Assembly: GCA_039028615.1 (NCBI GenBank)
Contig: JBCCHT010000027.1
Span: 128,001 to 192,000 of the forward strand
Origin: Myxococcota bacterium
GTDB lineage: Bacteria > Myxococcota_A > Polyangia > Nannocystales > Nannocystaceae
DNA: 64,000 bases
Direction of reading: 5' to 3'
Positions 31,088 through 44,755 of this stretch are shown here, piece by piece; positions within the stretch are counted from its first letter, which is position 1; each line of letters opens with the position of its first letter. The notes beneath the pieces are model-generated. The model searched no databases. It worked only from the letters and a program-made list of their open reading frames with translations, and was not told the origin of the DNA. The position numbers and the translations under genes are program-made.

Positions 31088-31251
31088 CGCGTCACTTCGA
31101 CGCGTGCATTCGTCATGAACCGCTCCGCGCAGACTCATCGCCACCATCATGTGGTGATCGTGCATTCGATGCACGATATCTGCCCGTGTTGAGCGGTTCC
31201 CGGCGTTTGTACCCAACTTGATGGACTTCGCCGGGCCTCTCGGCACGGGCG
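31088..31251 (+). promoter_or_regulatory. Structured leader with alternative helices (attenuator-like)
   Basis: 31117-25 pairs with 31191-99, versus 31181-93 with 31239-51 plus 31199-205 with 31229-35. Confidence 0.6.
31115..31192 (+). CDS. Putative His-rich leader peptide MNRSAQTHRHHHVVIVHSMHDICPC
   Basis: Manual translation: 6 His and 1 Asp in 25 aa, upstream of tRNA-Asp/His; shares its stop-context motif with 44469..44564. Confidence 0.6.
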   Translation: MNRSAQTHRHHHVVIVHSMHDICPC

Positions 31252-31313
31252 ACCCCTCACCCATTCGTTGGCCATGTCGACCGAGCCCCATTTGGCTCGA
31301 AGACGGGGCCCAC

Positions 31314-31385
31314 GGGGTCGTGGCGCAGTGGTAGCGCACCCGGTTGTCAGCCGGAAGGTCGCGGGTTCGAATCCCGTCGGCCCCG
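31314..31385 (+). tRNA. tRNA-Asp(GUC), atypical
   Basis: Cloverleaf GGGGTCG/CGGCCCC, loop TT-GTC-AG, TTCGAAT, G73; C27-A43 mismatch; followed by CCG. Confidence 0.88.
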
Positions 31386-31447
31386 CCGAGTCGTTGTCTG
31401 TCGACTCTCACCATCTTCTTACTCAACCACTCAACGACAAACACATC

Positions 31448-31519
31448 ATGAACAACATCGAGCAATCCAACGGCGAGGACGACTCGACCCATCATCCGAT
31501 GGCGGGTGTAGCTCAGTAG
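31448..31519 (+). other. Spacer mini-ORF MNNIEQSNGEDDSTHHPMAGVAQ running into tRNA-His
   Basis: Starts in the ACATCATGAACA motif shared with spacers of the minus-strand array. Confidence 0.35.
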
Positions 31520-31577
31520 GTAGAGTGCCGGAATGTGACTCCGGTGGGCGCCGGTTCGAGCCCGGCCACTCGCCCCA
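31501..31577 (+). tRNA. tRNA-His(GUG)
   Basis: Cloverleaf with G-1:C73, loop AT-GTG-AC, encoded CCA. Confidence 0.92.
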
Positions 31578-40137: not shown

Positions 40138-40314
40138 ATGCAAAAGGTAAAGTTCTACACGGGCCTTTCGGCCTTCGTCTCTCTCGTTTTCTCCGTGACG
40201 TTGTGGTTCTCGGGGCACAAGGACCAGGGGGTCTTCGTGGGCTTGTGGGTGCCCTCCATTCTCTCCCTGGGTGCCTTCATTCTCTCTGGATGGAATCACT
40301 ACGATGGAAAGTGA
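40138..40314 (+). CDS. Small two-TM membrane protein (58 aa)
   Basis: SD-like GAAGGA; GVFVGLWVPSIL. Confidence 0.65.
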   Translation: MQKVKFYTGLSAFVSLVFSVTLWFSGHKDQGVFVGLWVPSILSLGAFILSGWNHYDGK

Positions 40315-40414
40315 TCTCTTCATCTTTGGCGTGGGAGTCTCCGTACTCTCCCCCGTGCTCTTGTCCGTGGGCATGCTGTTGTGGGTCGGAGGGCGCCCCA
40401 CGAGACGCCGTTGA
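40304..40414 (+). CDS. Small single-TM protein (36 aa)
   Basis: Manual translation MESDLFIFGVGVSVLSPVLLSVGMLLWVGGRPTRRR; overlaps the upstream stop. Confidence 0.45.
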   Translation: MESDLFIFGVGVSVLSPVLLSVGMLLWVGGRPTRRR

Positions 40415-40535
40415 CCTTCGCGGCCGACGAGCAACGGGTGGGGCGTGGGCTCCGGTATGCCCGGCCCCATTCGGCCGTTCACGTCCAGAGAGTCGAAAAC
40501 CCCGCCCTCACCCGCTGCATCCCCTCCGCTTCGCC

Positions 40536-41510
40536 TCACGCCCCCGCTGCACACAGCGACGCGTAGCGCACCTCGTCGCCGCGCCGGGCGACCTGACCGG
40601 CCAGCTCGGGACTGGCGACCGTGGTCAGGACGATGCGAGCACGCCAACGACCGAGCTGGTCGTCGACCGCCCCCTGGCTGAGGACCAGTCCGGCGAGACG
40701 CCGCACGACCGCCTCCACGTCGGCGCGCTCGCGCGACGTCGCTTCGGCGAGCGCTGCCTCTAGGCCCTCGAGGCGGTCGTCGATCACCCGTAGCGGCCGA
40801 GCGACGGACGCACGCTCACCGAGCGCCCGTGCGACCTCGATCGCGAGCGAGCCGTAGCAGACCCGCACCAGGGGCTCCCACACGTGACGCCAGAAGGCCT
40901 GGTTGGGCGCCAGCTCGACCCCCACCACCCGACCACCGATGAGGATGATCGCGCCACGCTGATCGGGGACCAACTCGAACTCGGCGACGAACTCGTCGAG
41001 TTGCTTGGCGAAGTGACGGAGGAAGTACTCGAGGTGTCCACCGCCGCCCCCCGTGGACGCGCCCAGCCGGGTGTTGAAGCGCGTGATGTCGGGCCACAGC
41101 TTGTCGTAGCCCGTCTCGTTGCGCATCGCGAGCGCACGGCCACGCAGGGCAGCGGGGAGCACCACCATCGGATGCTTGTCTCGCCCGATGTAGCCCCCCT
41201 GCGACTGCTGAATGCAACGCGCAGTGTCGATCTTGACCGACTGCCCCGCCCGCATCAGCTTGCCGCTGCCGATCGCGTGATCCTGCGCCGCTTGCCGGAC
41301 CACCCACCCCGCGCCCGGAGGCACGATGGTGGGACGGTCGTCGTCGTTGCGCAGATCGACGGTACCGTAGTGACTCGTGCCGACCTCGACGTGGGGCGGG
41401 GCGAACGTCTCGTCGTCCTCGCCGAGCAGAGGGATCACCTCCATCACGCCGACGCTCTGACGTCGACCCGTTCGGGTTCCACGCAGGATGTCTTCAACGG
41501 TGAGTCTCAT
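40536..41510 (-). CDS. ARPP/DUF6569-like domain protein (324 aa)
   Basis: Starts MRLTVEDIL with an ATGA overlap to the upstream gene; QDHA, CIQQSQGG, FELVPDQRGAIILIGG; family recalled from memory. Confidence 0.55.
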   Translation of the reverse strand: MRLTVEDILRGTRTGRRQSVGVMEVIPLLGEDDETFAPPHVEVGTSHYGTVDLRNDDDRPTIVPPGAGWVVRQAAQDHAIGSGKLMRAGQSVKIDTARCIQQSQGGYIGRDKHPMVVLPAALRGRALAMRNETGYDKLWPDITRFNTRLGASTGGGGGHLEYFLRHFAKQLDEFVAEFELVPDQRGAIILIGGRVVGVELAPNQAFWRHVWEPLVRVCYGSLAIEVARALGERASVARPLRVIDDRLEGLEAALAEATSRERADVEAVVRRLAGLVLSQGAVDDQLGRWRARIVLTTVASPELAGQVARRGDEVRYASLCAAGA

Positions 41511-43123
41511 CTCAGCACCTCTCGATCTGCCCTCGGGGGCAGCGACGTCATGCGCAGTAGCGCATCGATCACACGCTTCGGCTCGTGGTCGAGCATGGCT
41601 CGCAGCAGCGAGATTCCGGACGCGTCCGGCTTGGTCATGGGTAGGGTGGGCACCAGTCCCGGCGCCAGCTCTCGCACCCCCGAGGTCTCTGCCGCGACCA
41701 CGGGATTGATATGGACGATCGGAGCCCGAATGCCGATCCGCTTCAGGTGCGCGCACACGTCCGCGAACCTCCCGGCGGGAGCGTTCTCGTAGCCGTCGGA
41801 GATCACGTAGATCACGTCGGGCCGCAGTCGGAGCATCTGCAGCAAAGCGCTGGCGAGGTTGGTCTCGCCCTGCGGACGAACGAGCCGGCCGAGGTCGGGA
41901 TTCGCCACACCGCCCACGTAGCGCACATGCCCGTGACCGGCCGTGTGCAGCAGCATGTCTCGAGTCGCCAGGGCGGTGGCCATGGGCCGCAGCTTCTGAG
42001 TCGTCGAGCCGAACATGGACGCCGAGCCGTCGACGATGACCCCCACCGACTCGTAGTGGAACGGGAACTGAAGCGCGGCCTTGCGAGCCTTGTCGTCCAG
42101 CGCTCGCTCGATCGGCGAGGTCATGCCCATTTCGAATGCGTAGATGTAGAGCTTCACTGCCTCCAGTCGTGTCGGGTCCATCTCGACGTCGACACCAGCG
42201 TCCTTGGCCTGACGCTGCACGGCCATGCGTTGGCCGGCCGACATGCTTCCCTTGCTCAGCTCGAGGAGCTGAGCCTTGCCCACCTTCGAGTGGTAGGTCG
42301 CGGCGATGCCTTGTAGCACCTCGAGCGGCAGCCCCTGGCCCGCGGCCAGGTCGGTCTTTGCGGCTTGCGCCTTGTAGAAGACCGGGATGGACCATGCCGT
42401 ACGCTCCGCGCCCAGGATGTAGGCCACGCACTCGCGCAGCCACGCGACGGGAGCCCTGGGCGCCCATCGGTCGACCTCCTCACGCAGGATCTTGTGTTCC
42501 TTGTCGCCGATGCGCGCCGGCTCCTTGCCGAGGATCGAGCGCAGGATGCCCGTCTTCCGCACGCCCCACGCGTGGGTCAGCGCCGTGCTGAGCTTGTCGC
42601 GGTACTTGACCGCCCACCAGTCCAGCGAGCGTGCCCGCAGGAGCGTCCGTAGTACGAGCTTCCGTGCCCGGTTGGTGTTGACCCGACCGGAGCCCAGCGA
42701 CTCGTCCTTACCGCGCAGCGAGACCAGCAGCCGCAGCATTCGCGTGGCCGGTAGCTCGTGCAGCAGGTCGTCGACCAGAGCGAGTTCCTGCCCGGCGCTC
42801 ACGATGGAGCCCGTGCCCATGCGCGGTCGCATGAGCAGGCTACGTACGCCGAGCTGACGCGTCCGGTCCGTCACTCCGGGCAGAGTGAGGAACGCGGCGT
42901 ACAGGCCACGATCCAGCGCGAGCATGTCCCCGTGGGACCTCTGCTCCGCCGCCCGGACCTCGCCCTCGTCGTTGTAGTGCGTCGCCCGGCCCAGCCCGGT
43001 TGCCGCGTGGTCGAGGAACGAGCGTACGACGTCGCGCACTCGCTCATCGGCCACCCCAACGGGCGTCGCCCACGTGGGCGTCACGGCCTTGCGACTCAGC
43101 TCCGTGGTCTGCATCGTATCCAT
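41507..43123 (-). CDS. Ro60/TROVE-like helical protein with C-terminal vWA domain (538 aa)
   Basis: Basic helical N-terminal region; MIDAS DGSAS...T...ISDGYEN; GGAG SD; Ro60-like size and architecture. The vWA is solid; TROVE is inferred. Confidence 0.6.
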   Translation of the reverse strand: MDTMQTTELSRKAVTPTWATPVGVADERVRDVVRSFLDHAATGLGRATHYNDEGEVRAAEQRSHGDMLALDRGLYAAFLTLPGVTDRTRQLGVRSLLMRPRMGTGSIVSAGQELALVDDLLHELPATRMLRLLVSLRGKDESLGSGRVNTNRARKLVLRTLLRARSLDWWAVKYRDKLSTALTHAWGVRKTGILRSILGKEPARIGDKEHKILREEVDRWAPRAPVAWLRECVAYILGAERTAWSIPVFYKAQAAKTDLAAGQGLPLEVLQGIAATYHSKVGKAQLLELSKGSMSAGQRMAVQRQAKDAGVDVEMDPTRLEAVKLYIYAFEMGMTSPIERALDDKARKAALQFPFHYESVGVIVDGSASMFGSTTQKLRPMATALATRDMLLHTAGHGHVRYVGGVANPDLGRLVRPQGETNLASALLQMLRLRPDVIYVISDGYENAPAGRFADVCAHLKRIGIRAPIVHINPVVAAETSGVRELAPGLVPTLPMTKPDASGISLLRAMLDHEPKRVIDALLRMTSLPPRADREVLR

Positions 43124-43146
43124 CGTCTCGGTCTCCGTCGTCAGGG

Positions 43147-43301
43147 GATCGTTCGCAAAAAGCAGCCCGGGCCAAGGTCGGGGCCAACTATGGGTTCCAG
43201 AACAGGAATCGAACCTGCCCTCTTCGTTTCCAACGAAGTGCGCTCCAAATGCGCCATCTGTAATGGCTCCAGAGTCCCCGAGCTACTCTTTGCGATCGAT
43301 C
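43147..43301 (-). ncRNA. tRNA-like cloverleaf (anticodon GGA, 43191-43263) enclosed in a 25-bp helix; candidate Y-RNA-like RNA
   Basis: Arms 43277-43301 and 43147-43171 pair with 3 G-U and 1 mismatch, and the G-U pairs work only on the minus strand. Inner D, anticodon and T arms plus CCA. Confidence 0.7.
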
Positions 43302-43311
43302 GTAGTTGTCG

Positions 43312-43341
43312 TGGAGACCCGAATTCAGCCTCGGGTCTCCA
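43312..43341. other. Perfect 11-bp spacer hairpin
   Basis: TGGAGACCCGA-N8-TCGGGTCTCCA. Confidence 0.7.
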
Positions 43342-43359
43342 GCAATTTTCATCGTTCTA

Positions 43360-43436
43360 TGGTGGGCGCGGCAGGATTTGCACCTGCGACCTCTCGGTTA
43401 TCAGCCGAGTGCTCCAACTCCCTGAGCTACGCGCCC
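43360..43436 (-). tRNA. tRNA-Ile(GAU), atypical T loop
   Basis: GGGCGCG/CGCGCCC, loop CT-GAT-AA, T loop TGCAAAT, A73, CCA. Confidence 0.88.
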
Positions 43437-43486
43437 AGGGTAATCATCGCGGGCTCGTCGAGCGAGCCCATACCGTACATGTCCAT
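43427..43486 (-). other. Spacer mini-ORF MDMYGMGSLDEPAMITLGA ending inside tRNA-Ile
   Basis: GAGG SD plus ACATCATGGACA start motif. Confidence 0.35.
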
Positions 43487-43505
43487 GATGTCCTCAATCT
43501 GTCTT

Positions 43506-43580
43506 TGGTACCGGGTGAGGGAGTCGAACCCCCAACCATCAGTGTGTAAAACTGCTGCTCTACCGTTGAGCCAACCCGGC
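43506..43580 (-). tRNA. tRNA-Val(UAC)
   Basis: GCCGGGT/ACCCGGT, loop TT-TAC-AC, A73, CCA; G27-A43 mismatch. Confidence 0.88.
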
Positions 43581-43632
43581 GTGGGTCCAGCGGGTCGCAA
43601 TCCGGCGACCCTGCGTGGGACTCACGACGGTA

Positions 43633-43707
43633 TGGAGGGCGGTGCGGGATTCGAACCCGCGATCTCCTGGGTTGCAGCCAGGCGCCTTGCCACTCGACCA
43701 ACCGCCC
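43633..43707 (-). tRNA. tRNA-Cys(GCA)
   Basis: GGGCGGT/ACCGCCC, loop CT-GCA-AC, U73, CCA. Confidence 0.92.
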
Positions 43708-43713
43708 TTGCGG

Positions 43714-43781
43714 CAGGTCGCCGGGGGATCGAACCCCGTCTCGTGGAGTTGGAGTCCACGGTCTCCTCCAGGAAGCGACCC
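43714..43781 (-). tRNA. tRNA-Trp(CCA)-like with reduced D arm (68 nt)
   Basis: GGGTCGC/GCGACCT, 6-bp anticodon stem, loop CT-CCA-AC, intact T arm, G73. Confidence 0.7.
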
Positions 43782-43862
43782 ATACGAACCGAAGTACGTA
43801 CAACATCGCCAGGAGCGACCGAGGATGTGAAGTGGTTGGATCATCGTCCTCGTCCTTTTCGG

Positions 43863-43935
43863 TGGACCGGGTGGGAGTCGAACCCACGACCTTCTGCGTG
43901 CAAGGCAGTTGCTCTCCCAGCTGAGCTACCGGCCC
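43863..43935 (-). tRNA. tRNA-Ala(UGC)
   Basis: G3:U70 identity pair, loop CT-TGC-AC, A73; A27-A43 mismatch. Confidence 0.92.
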
Positions 43936-43967
43936 ATGGGGGTCGCATGCCCTCCTGACCGGAGGGC

Positions 43968-44003
43968 CTACCTCGCGGCAGCGTCCTTTCGTGAAATGTT
44001 CAT
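43968..44003 (-). other. Spacer mini-ORF MNISRKDAAAR upstream of tRNA-Ala
   Basis: ACATCATGAACA start motif; followed by a GCCCTCC/GGAGGGC hairpin. Confidence 0.35.
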
Positions 44004-44065
44004 GATGTCACCCGTAAAAATTGGACAGTGGGTCAAGTTTGAAGAGATGAATTGGATCCCCTTGT

Positions 44066-44137
44066 CGGGGATCGTTGGTTTCGAGCCAACGAATGGAGGC
44101 GTTTTCAGTGCCCTCTGTAGTCTCTTCGTAGTTCCCG
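44066..44137 (-). pseudogene. Degenerate tRNA-Phe(GAA)-like element
   Basis: Loop CT-GAA-AA and T arm GTTGG-CTCGAAA-CCAAC retained; acceptor mismatches, no D stem. Confidence 0.55.
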
Positions 44138-44145
44138 TCGTCCGG

Positions 44146-44275
44146 TGGCGAGGGCTGGAGTCGAACCAGCAAACTTCCGTTTTCGAGACAGACGCCTTTA
44201 CCTGAAACCCCTCAGTAGCCCCCGGATCGCATCCGGGCCAGGTGTCGAGGGGTTGAACCATTTGGCTACCTCGCC
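44146..44275 (-). ncRNA. tRNA-like RNA (anticodon CGA) with a 57-nt hairpin inserted in the D loop
   Basis: Perfect GGCGAGG/CCTCGCC acceptor, GCC/GGC D stem, intact T arm; removing 44201-44257 leaves a 73-nt cloverleaf. Confidence 0.8.
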
Positions 44276-44400
44276 GTATGTGATGTGCAGTTGATCGGGT
44301 CGTGAGAAGTGAAGTTCGTGAAGCCAACGATGGCCACACGGGCGTACGAAGCCCTCTCGGCGTAGGGCCGAGTCAGCGTGGCTCCGCGTGGAGCCAAAGC

Positions 44401-44597
44401 GTCGCGGGGGCTATGCCCTCGAGCGTCCCGATGCTCGTCGTATGAATGGATTCACACCGGGAGAACGCTCAACACGCGACAATCTCGCCCGCAAGGCGGA
44501 CGAGCGACCACAAGGCGGCGGCCTGGGCCGACGCTGGGGTCGAGATGTTCGTGAAACGTTCCATGGCGTGAACTCGTCGATCGCCCTTTGCAGGGCG
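44401..44597 (-). promoter_or_regulatory. Structured leader with alternative helices, same architecture as 31088-31251
   Basis: Start-region GAACGTTT pairs with GAGCGTTC, versus TTGAGCG/CGCTCGA, TCCCGGTG/CATCGGGA and GTCGCG/CGCGAC. Confidence 0.6.
44469..44564 (-). CDS. Putative leader peptide MERFTNISTPASAQAAALWSLVRLAGEIVAC
   Basis: Manual translation; ends I-x-x-C-TGA like leader 1; contains every amino acid represented in the downstream array. Confidence 0.55.
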   Translation of the reverse strand: MERFTNISTPASAQAAALWSLVRLAGEIVAC

Positions 44598-44604
44598 TTT
44601 GAGA

Positions 44605-44632
44605 GATGTACACGAGATTTTTGAGTCGTCAA
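44605..44632 (-). promoter_or_regulatory. Putative sigma70 promoter of the tRNA array
   Basis: TTGACG-N16-TACATC with an upstream A9 tract (44646-54). Confidence 0.5.
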
Positions 44633-44755
44633 AGACATTTGTGCATTTTTTTTTCGCCGCGCACGAGGTGCGACTATCCAAAACTCGAAGAGGCCACTCG
44701 AAATCGTGAGTTCCGCCTGAGCTTCGCCGCCCTACGATGGAGAGGTGGTGATGCC

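Follow-up and report, generated by a model that had tools for sequence, protein, structure and literature searches.

A leader-headed tRNA array joined to tRNA-mimic RNAs, a Ro60-like protein and ARPP-1: a probable accessory operon in a Myxococcota genome

The window analysed here is a stretch of 64,000 nucleotides (nt) of a Myxococcota genome (G000; 12.3 Mb, 68% GC), positions 128001-192000 of its contig C27 (JBCCHT010000027.1), in which a tRNA array on the minus strand is headed by a short leader open reading frame (ORF) and followed by genes for proteins of 538 and 324 amino acids (aa; Table 1). We propose that this is an accessory tRNA operon under leader-peptide control with an integrated Ro60-like ribonucleoprotein (RNP) cassette, in which leader-gated read-through would yield both spare tRNAs and the particle, a reading to which we give a probability of about 0.62. 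The order promoter, leader, CGA-loop element, 'pseudo-Phe' element, Ala, Trp-like, Cys, Val and Ile tRNAs, GGA element and two protein genes, set out in a preliminary description made from the DNA letters alone, is borne out by the coordinates of every part, and the ATGA overlap on which translational coupling of the two protein genes was proposed is present (43123-41507 and 41510-40536). A contig from a sequencing run that may be the source covers the stretch unbroken, with zero differences. Below, C numbers denote contigs and L numbers fetched loci, most of them homologous.

A comparison of the regions upstream of all 49 listed tRNA loci of G000 identified eight in which a short ORF uses the same amino acids as the tRNAs that follow, namely Ser/Tyr, Cys/Gln, Thr/Phe/Asn/Lys, Asp/His, Met/Phe, Arg/Leu, Pro and the array of the window, with its leader rich in Ala/Val/Ile/Trp. 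These paralogous leaders split 18 amino acids over eight loci of one chromosome, and no Gly or Glu unit was seen in G000. Four of the eight share the ending TGT TGA GCG, and a 14-nt pattern for this ending has 25 matches in 73 genomes of the family, 15 of which (in nine genomes) have an in-frame leader and same-strand tRNAs while the remaining ten have neither; outside the family, in a 401-genome sample of the phylum, none of 29 fetched matches has same-strand tRNAs. Across the 15 leaders, not counting the five opening residues and the closing Cys of each, 128 of 383 codons specify amino acids of the downstream tRNAs, compared with a mean of 63.4 (standard deviation 10.2) and a maximum of 115 in 100,000 permutations of the tRNA sets. 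For the eight G000 loci the true pairing of leaders and tRNAs is the best of 40,320 (80 of 219 codons), and in the window leader 12 of 25 codons match, with Ser left out of the count. In 13 of the 15 leaders the ATG is preceded, at a distance of 34-49 nt, by a promoter-like TTGACN-16/17-TA element; a strict consensus promoter scanner does not list the TTGACG-16-TACATC site of the window (44632-44605). Three points weigh against the codon match: the leaders are related, so that the permutation overstates their independence, two of them match poorly (1/35 and 5/42), and four of the eight in G000 were picked by eye. The preliminary description had proposed a leader that senses stalled translation, and this idea gains support in a more specific form, because the leader codons match the downstream tRNAs: the leader probably switches the operon on when its cognate tRNAs run short. 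The idea that it senses the anticodons of the mimics described below was rejected, the Phe of 'MERFT' and TCG codons also being found in leaders without Phe or Ser tRNAs.

Leader-peptide attenuators are established for trpL, hisL, thrL and ilvL, with Rho-type examples in mgtL and tnaC, and also include the mycobacterial polycysteine leaders. The present leaders resemble them in being short ORFs enriched in cognate codons, and the known leaders couple translation of the relevant amino acids to alternative folds near the stop codon. All 15 leaders have their stop codon within a long hairpin, on its 5' strand, and long-range pairing of the stop region reaches at least 0.6 in 15/15 compared with 9/39 other motif matches; when the 5' strand is masked, the 3' strand folds into a short alternative hairpin in about 7/15, judged by eye. 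On the other side, the stop hairpin is unusually stable (z <= -2) in just 4/15, and no U-tract intrinsic terminator was found on the minus strand between 40000 and 44800 (one site lies on the plus strand), and hence the output of the switch remains a guess. The systems also differ from known attenuators in that tRNAs and an RNP, not biosynthetic or transport proteins, would be controlled, that a U-tract terminator is missing, and that one paralogous leader family serves eight loci. A ribosome at the leader stop would melt the 5' strand of the hairpin, the RNA would refold, and transcription would stop or the RNA be cut; given the absence of a U-tract terminator, Rho-dependent termination is our guess, and a C-rich stretch before the first tRNA, present in the window, is not general among the leaders and not shown to be a Rho site. 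If charged Ala, Val, Ile or Trp (or, elsewhere, other cognate) tRNAs ran short, the ribosome would lag, the long hairpin would form and the array would be read through, after which processing could free spare tRNAs and handle RNAs. We infer both this direction of the switch and the role of Rho.

The supply of spare tRNAs, another early proposal, agrees with the array itself, whose Ala, Cys, Val and Ile genes look normal by score (64-68 bits as tRNAs in Infernal) and, for the first three, by the established identity-base rules, as the expected G3-U70 (Ala), U73 (Cys) and A73 (Val) are kept. Each of the four has a separate, differing copy elsewhere in G000 and they are thus supernumerary; judged from sequence, the Ala and Cys tRNAs are likely functional. 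The Val tRNA has a similar gene in the orthologous array of another genome, G002. The Trp element reaches just 27.8 bits, and this with the tRNA-Sec model, and its region is replaced in a relative of about 90% identity from another study, whose contig otherwise spans the leader, the array and the start of the Ro-like gene. A leader-headed array of G002 (C4, region L184:6155-6085) contains a tRNA-Thr with an AGT anticodon, A34 being unusual in bacterial tRNA-Thr, and an Ile(AAT) call lies near L186.

The CGA, pseudo-Phe (GAA) and GGA elements of the array are of a different kind. ARAGORN calls the CGA (44216-44144) and GGA (43263-43191) elements, which score 27.2 and 49.1 bits as tRNAs in Infernal, and does not call the GAA element at about 44142-44022, in which folding shows a closed acceptor along with anticodon and T arms. 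ARAGORN likewise reports tRNAs with erratic anticodons in the regions upstream of homologous genes of metagenomes and large phages, and these elements have in common a non-tRNA motif, RRRACU-N9-11-WYAG (RRRACU-N-GUYR-N-UWCAG in the frequency table), referred to here as the handle, which supplies one strand of a pair of stacked helices with an internal loop between them. Of 44 minimal copies, 37 were picked for having an identified partner strand, and in these 78.8% of the cells pair compared with 55.9% after shuffling (inner helix 89.9%; slid controls at most 48.9%), with 168 two-sided changes compared with 70 shuffled and a covariation of 0.66 compared with at most 0.28 for slid controls. The cognate strand pairs at -20.1 kcal/mol on average and foreign windows at -14.0, and it beats all foreign windows in just 32 of 122 cases. 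A weight matrix trained on 154 homologous sites, with the GGA handle of the window left out, reaches at least 15 bits on the gene strand at 62 of the 74 loci with at least 600 nt upstream and at none of the 74 on the opposite strand, a count that is partly circular, unlike the strand control and the held-out window. The held-out GGA handle has the top score in the 12.3 Mb and the GAA element ranks sixth. The tRNA mimics first noticed beside the Ro-like gene are also borne out across its homologues.

Three layouts can be distinguished. In layout I (GAA) the handle encloses the anticodon arm, the T arm and a loop-closed acceptor, which amounts to a circularly permuted tRNA mimic. In layout II (GGA) the 5' strand of the handle starts at 43278 and the 3' strand occupies 43187-43161; between them lie the D, GGA-anticodon and T arms, ordered as in a tRNA, within a long helix (z = -6.6; 0/200 shuffles as stable) that is followed by a U run. 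Layout III (CGA), an assignment resting on the fold and a rule-based count, is an unpermuted tRNA body with a 7-bp acceptor, short variable loop, T arm and free 3' end, into whose D loop the handle is inserted with its strands in reverse order (about 44256-44200); an upstream duplex has -26 kcal/mol. Among 161 handle copies, 74 lack a tRNA part, 49 follow layout II, 27 layout I and three layout III (about four further copies were seen by eye), and eight are unclear. The window holds all three layouts together, and by the strict rule no homologous locus does. Because 14 of the 37 readable anticodons begin with A, the mimics are probably not used for decoding. Assignment of the CGA and GGA elements to tRNA-Ser was rejected, as the variable loop is short in both and G000 has normal Ser tRNAs with a long arm at C83, C11 and C17. 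In bacteria and large phages alike, tRNA scanners miscall handle RNAs as tRNA-Ser or as tRNAs with odd anticodons.

As judged from their sequences and folds, the three window elements are tRNA mimics distinct from YrlA. YrlA likewise combines a tRNA mimic with a protein-binding stem, and layout I shares its loop-closed acceptor; also, the elements lie within 4 kb of a Ro gene on the same strand, if the 538-aa protein is accepted as Ro-like. YrlA is described as having no anticodon loop and its Ro module on the anticodon stem (PMC4201824; bioRxiv 10.1101/312249), whereas the window elements all keep an anticodon loop, the closed acceptor occurs in layout I alone, and the handle is placed differently, at the D arm of a permuted tRNA in layout I, at the acceptor in layout II and in the D loop in layout III. 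The YrlA model RF02553 matches neither the window elements nor 12 homologous loci, and finds the canonical YrlA copy of G000 at C16 with 61.3 bits, under the cut-off of 69; above threshold, Rfam returns tRNA matches alone for the window elements and the homologous loci examined. A covariance model from the 37 minimal handles finds the long-insert elements of the window weakly (rank 1, E 0.17; rank 4, E 1.2) and nothing in 14 loci, mostly of a distant clade and canonical TROVE, and the weight matrix misses a UUCCG variant noticed by eye in the distant clade.

The 538-aa protein is Ro60-like by its modelled fold and lies outside the profile-defined family. The model (predicted local distance difference test score, pLDDT, 89.4) has the Ro-like toroid, and the top 11 Foldseek matches listed are all Ro60/TROVE entries (best E 4.3e-7, TM 0.49). 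An independent aligner agrees, ranking first phage Ro60 9l5y (Z 16.2, root-mean-square deviation (rmsd) 5.0, 404 aligned, model range 31-529), Xenopus Ro60 1yvp (Z 15.2, rmsd 5.5, 405 aligned) and Deinococcus Rsr (Z 12.5, rmsd 5.5, 399 aligned), and the structural matches below the Ro60 entries cover the vWA domain alone. In language-model features the protein lies beside a TROVE-named cluster (0.98). The Ro60/TROVE likeness noted at the outset thus holds at the level of structure, and four results weigh against it: Pfam gives a weak vWA match alone, NCBIfam nothing, and neither a TROVE (PF05731) nor an Rsr profile matches; a profile search of PDB sequences yields no Ro match; comparing profiles with G000's canonical TROVE protein yields a probability of 3%, for the vWA part alone; and the Ro-binding motif GNCGAAN0-1G is not in the handle consensus according to the frequency table.

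Relatives of the protein number 386 among 8000 scored candidates, of which 110 were aligned; few homologues are named (Haliangium, Minicystis), and a single-protein scan found one locus in genome contigs and, among annotated phages, one unannotated record. The well-established MIDAS pattern (for metal-ion-dependent adhesion site) is kept in the 110 sequences, with D365, S367, T421 and D443 invariant and S369 present in at least 90%, and R152, R154, K155, K173, R175 and K177 form a conserved basic patch. By analogy with Ro60 and the stem of Y RNAs, the Ro-like ring would bind the handle, showing the tRNA elbow or the anticodon arm. The systems compared were Rsr-Yrn1-PNPase of D. radiodurans, rsr-yrlA-yrlB-rtcB of Salmonella and Ro60 of Thermus phage phiLo (9l5y/9kop) (PMC4201824, PMC12135203). 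With these the present system shares a helical ring and vWA domain over about 400 residues, several upstream same-strand small RNAs with a terminal bulged helix, some of them tRNA-like, and an occurrence in bacteria and large phages. It differs in its low identity (12-16%) and absent profile matches, in its handle consensus (RRRACU...UWCAG rather than the GNCGAA motif bound by known bacterial Ro proteins; PMC4201824), and in having a dedicated, translationally coupled ARPP partner with no RtcR control or RtcB in the operon. A Ro60 clade and a Y-like RNA class are indicated that Pfam, NCBIfam and Rfam miss. AT-rich virus-like loci (L114-L121) carry a Ro-like gene with as many as seven handle copies, flanked by RNA polymerase subunit genes on one side and a DUF2201 vWA/gyrase B cluster on the other.

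The 324-aa protein, described early on as ARPP-like, matches the ARPP-1 profile PF20208 with 96.8 bits (E 2e-27; cut-off 27), and Q76, H78 and C99 are invariant in the 72 aligned of 75 collected sequences. Of 90 distinct homologous loci, 78 have an ARPP gene behind the Ro-like gene, the 12 without a match all having less than 600 nt downstream, and no other gene recurs across lineages near the Ro-like gene in these 90 loci. A complex of the two proteins was predicted with a score of 0.65 compared with 0.00 for the best control. Of solved pairs 116 of 157 attain this mark, of mismatched pairs 2 of 215, counts that are only approximate for the alignments used. The runs share at least 89% of their contacts, the partner has a pLDDT of at least 86, and the interface is a face of the vWA domain including residues 367-369, 418-421 and 445-452. 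ARPP-1 is therefore predicted to dock on the vWA domain, a model that supports binding rather than showing it. Docked there, ARPP-1 would act as an effector on the vWA/MIDAS face, in the place of PNPase in known Ro particles; the role of the MIDAS in Ro60 has been called unclear (PMC12135203), and a predicted partner on that face makes it testable. ARPP has been proposed to act on ribose moieties (PMC9503650); the question of its substrate becomes testable with a constant partner and an RNA context. The published family shares the profile match and the invariant Cys and Gln with the window protein, whereas its neighbourhoods, in the available part of the publication, are of ARG-centred, HIRAN, WYL and deacetylase types and include no Ro60-like gene or small RNAs (PMC9503650). 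The ARPP model (pLDDT 95.8) does not clearly resemble any structure compared (best Z 4.5; no Foldseek match with E <= 0.001). A distant paralogue in G000 (C25, L156:5544-8330) pairs a 508-aa Ro-like protein with ARPP-2 (372 aa, E 8e-90), which by eye carries a C-terminal helix-turn-helix-like tail; a minimal handle-like RNA was seen by eye upstream, with similar elements in L147 and L151-L155.

That all parts form one fixed system, as the preliminary description implied, is not upheld. Leaders with tRNAs occur without a Ro gene, for instance in the orthologous Thr/Val/Ile leader array of G002; most homologues of the Ro-like gene have no leader, and in 15 of 60 homologous loci a promoter lies directly before the first feature, so that Ro-like gene, handles and ARPP often have a promoter of their own. 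Judged by these arrangements, the leader-tRNA device and the Ro-handle-ARPP device are separable, yet they join repeatedly. Both could be real but independent, a mobile Ro-handle-ARPP cassette having landed at a tRNA locus where the leader regulates the tRNAs alone and the Ro-like gene has a promoter of its own or none, an alternative that we consider unlikely. It would account for the patchy occurrence of the cassette (an ARPP match in 4 of 401 genomes of the class and in none of five other genomes of the genus) and for the G002 array, and it fits the loci with their own promoters. L074 combines the same leader family with 12 tRNAs, handle RNAs and Ro-ARPP, and a second promoter-like site immediately precedes its last three handle RNAs and Ro gene; control of Ro by the leader is therefore not required there. 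These observations weigh against a single operon, as do the presence of a matched leader in just two of the five homologous loci with at least three plain tRNAs in the upstream chain, and a close Ro-ARPP homologue with an N-terminal extension (L146:8791-5712, G349) that overlaps its upstream gene and for which no handle RNA was found. Independence of the two devices is, however, at odds with the window itself, in which two handle RNAs sit directly behind the leader and ahead of the first tRNA and hence depend on the leader's promoter, no promoter-like site was found before the GGA element by eye or scanner, and the genes have the same GC content as the genome. Also, the whole layout recurs in the relative of about 90% identity and in two unrelated loci, L074 and L033, the latter with a Leu/Ser/Tyr-rich leader, nine such tRNAs, handles and Ro-ARPP; in L228, a 34-tRNA array is followed by two handle RNAs and Ro-ARPP. 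We therefore retain the leader-controlled operon with its integrated cassette as the more probable reading.

Alternatively, the handles might act in cis as processing signals, terminators or autoregulatory sites in the leader of the Ro-like mRNA, with decaying tRNA parts, rather than as free Y-like RNAs. Their position nearly always within 1.5 kb upstream on the same strand, their frequent ending in U runs and the free drift of their anticodons are compatible with this. We regard it as improbable, since they occur in tandem copies of two to four with different inserts, like the Y RNAs near Rsr (PMC4201824), since T arms and permuted acceptor hairpins are kept in the layout I and II copies, which decay alone would not build, and since the protein has the Ro60 fold. 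Not supported, and likewise improbable, is an RNA-repair platform, as suggested at first, in which ring and mimics would serve a ligase or an enzyme that heals RNA ends, ARPP supplying the healing activity: canonical Rsr is linked with RtcB operons (PMC7824862; also the C16 locus of G000), ARPP may act on ribose, and RtcB lies within 8 kb in 4 of the 90 homologous loci, but the other 86 have no RtcB cluster member in the DNA covered (many loci being short), the operon contains no ligase, no further gene recurs, and rtcR, rtcB and rtcA are not linked to the window's Ro-like gene, G000 repairing RNA via a separate RtcR locus. The latter is a canonical RtcR-TROVE-YrlA-like/RtcB-RtcA locus (C16, L157:5680-11816), and G000 also has a second TROVE match at C44:100757 and five RtcB-like loci.

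For the combination of codon-matched leader, handle mimics, Ro60-like ring and ARPP we could not find a description. In the literature searched, main texts only, no paper links ARPP to Ro60/TROVE, describes the handle or puts tRNA genes under leader peptides, and the gene pair may stand in supplements or in the work defining ARPP-2. The nearest parallel for the tRNAs is the cyanobacterial L-array/Anabaena trn operon, whose supernumerary tRNAs have been proposed to be silent until translation is stressed (PMC8421152); the arrays here differ in that they are short, have their tRNAs grouped by amino acid and start with a matched leader. The switching-on of supernumerary bacterial tRNA genes thereby becomes testable, as a trp-operon-style sensor appears to gate chromosomal tRNAs per amino acid. 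More tentatively, and with considerable doubt, we suggest that the eight leader-gated units might form a distributed tRNA thermostat for 18 amino acids, each unit reading its own tRNA supply. Should tRNAs be depleted, as by tRNases of phage or toxin origin, the window unit would also release an RNP in which the Ro-like ring holds interchangeable tRNA decoys by the handle and brings the MIDAS-docked cysteine enzyme ARPP to whatever binds or damages the decoys. If true, this would provide the first physical partner for ARPP and a ligand for the Ro60 MIDAS site.

Table 1. Parts of the array, of the adjoining genes and of related leader-tRNA units (window positions unless a contig of G000 is given)
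Feature	Position	Strand	Basis or remark
Sigma-70-like promoter TTGACG-16-TACATC, inferred	44605-44632	-	Element read from sequence; recurs before other leaders
Leader ORF, 31 codons, MERFT...IVAC, Ala/Val/Ile/Trp-rich	44469-44564	-	Family ending TGT TGA GCG
Long hairpin, leader stop codon in 5' strand	44400-44479	-	RNA folding
Handle RNA, layout III (CGA loop)	44143-44275	-	Fold and rule-based count; handle 10.9 bits
Handle RNA, layout I ('pseudo-Phe', GAA)	44022-44142	-	Handle matrix 19.3 bits, rank 6 in genome
tRNA-Ala(TGC), G3-U70	43861-43935	-	ARAGORN; Infernal 66.7 bits
Degenerate tRNA-Trp(CCA)-like gene	43712-43781	-	ARAGORN; shrunken D arm, U discriminator
tRNA-Cys(GCA), U73	43633-43707	-	ARAGORN; Infernal 66.2 bits
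tRNA-Val(TAC), A73	43506-43580	-	ARAGORN; Infernal 64 bits
tRNA-Ile(GAT), atypical T loop	43360-43436	-	ARAGORN; Infernal 68 bits
Handle RNA, layout II (GGA)	43146-43305	-	23.8 bits, top handle score in genome
538-aa divergent Ro60/TROVE-fold protein, helical repeat and vWA	41507-43123	-	ORF, structure model
324-aa ARPP-1 protein	40536-41510	-	PF20208 profile match
Sister unit: His/Asp-rich leader of the same family, then tRNA-Asp (31314-31387) and tRNA-His (31502-31577)	31115-31577	+	Motif, ARAGORN; orthologue in G002 (L177/L193)
Leader-tRNA unit Ser/Tyr	C3:258032-258723		Without TGT TGA GCG ending
Leader-tRNA unit Cys/Gln	C9:257489-257854		Without TGT TGA GCG ending
Leader-tRNA unit Arg/Leu	C43:37444-37915		Without TGT TGA GCG ending
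Leader-tRNA unit Pro	C1:247395-247775		Without TGT TGA GCG ending

Two smaller observations concern the surroundings of these features. The minus-strand spacers between the tRNAs are themselves structured (44015-43936, 43860-43782, 43505-43437 and 43358-43306), and two of them have the word GACATCATG(A/G)ACAT in common; degenerate handles are possible there (0.3 bits at 43494). On the plus strand, two tiny hydrophobic ORFs of 58 and about 30 aa (40138-40415) converge on the end of the ARPP gene.

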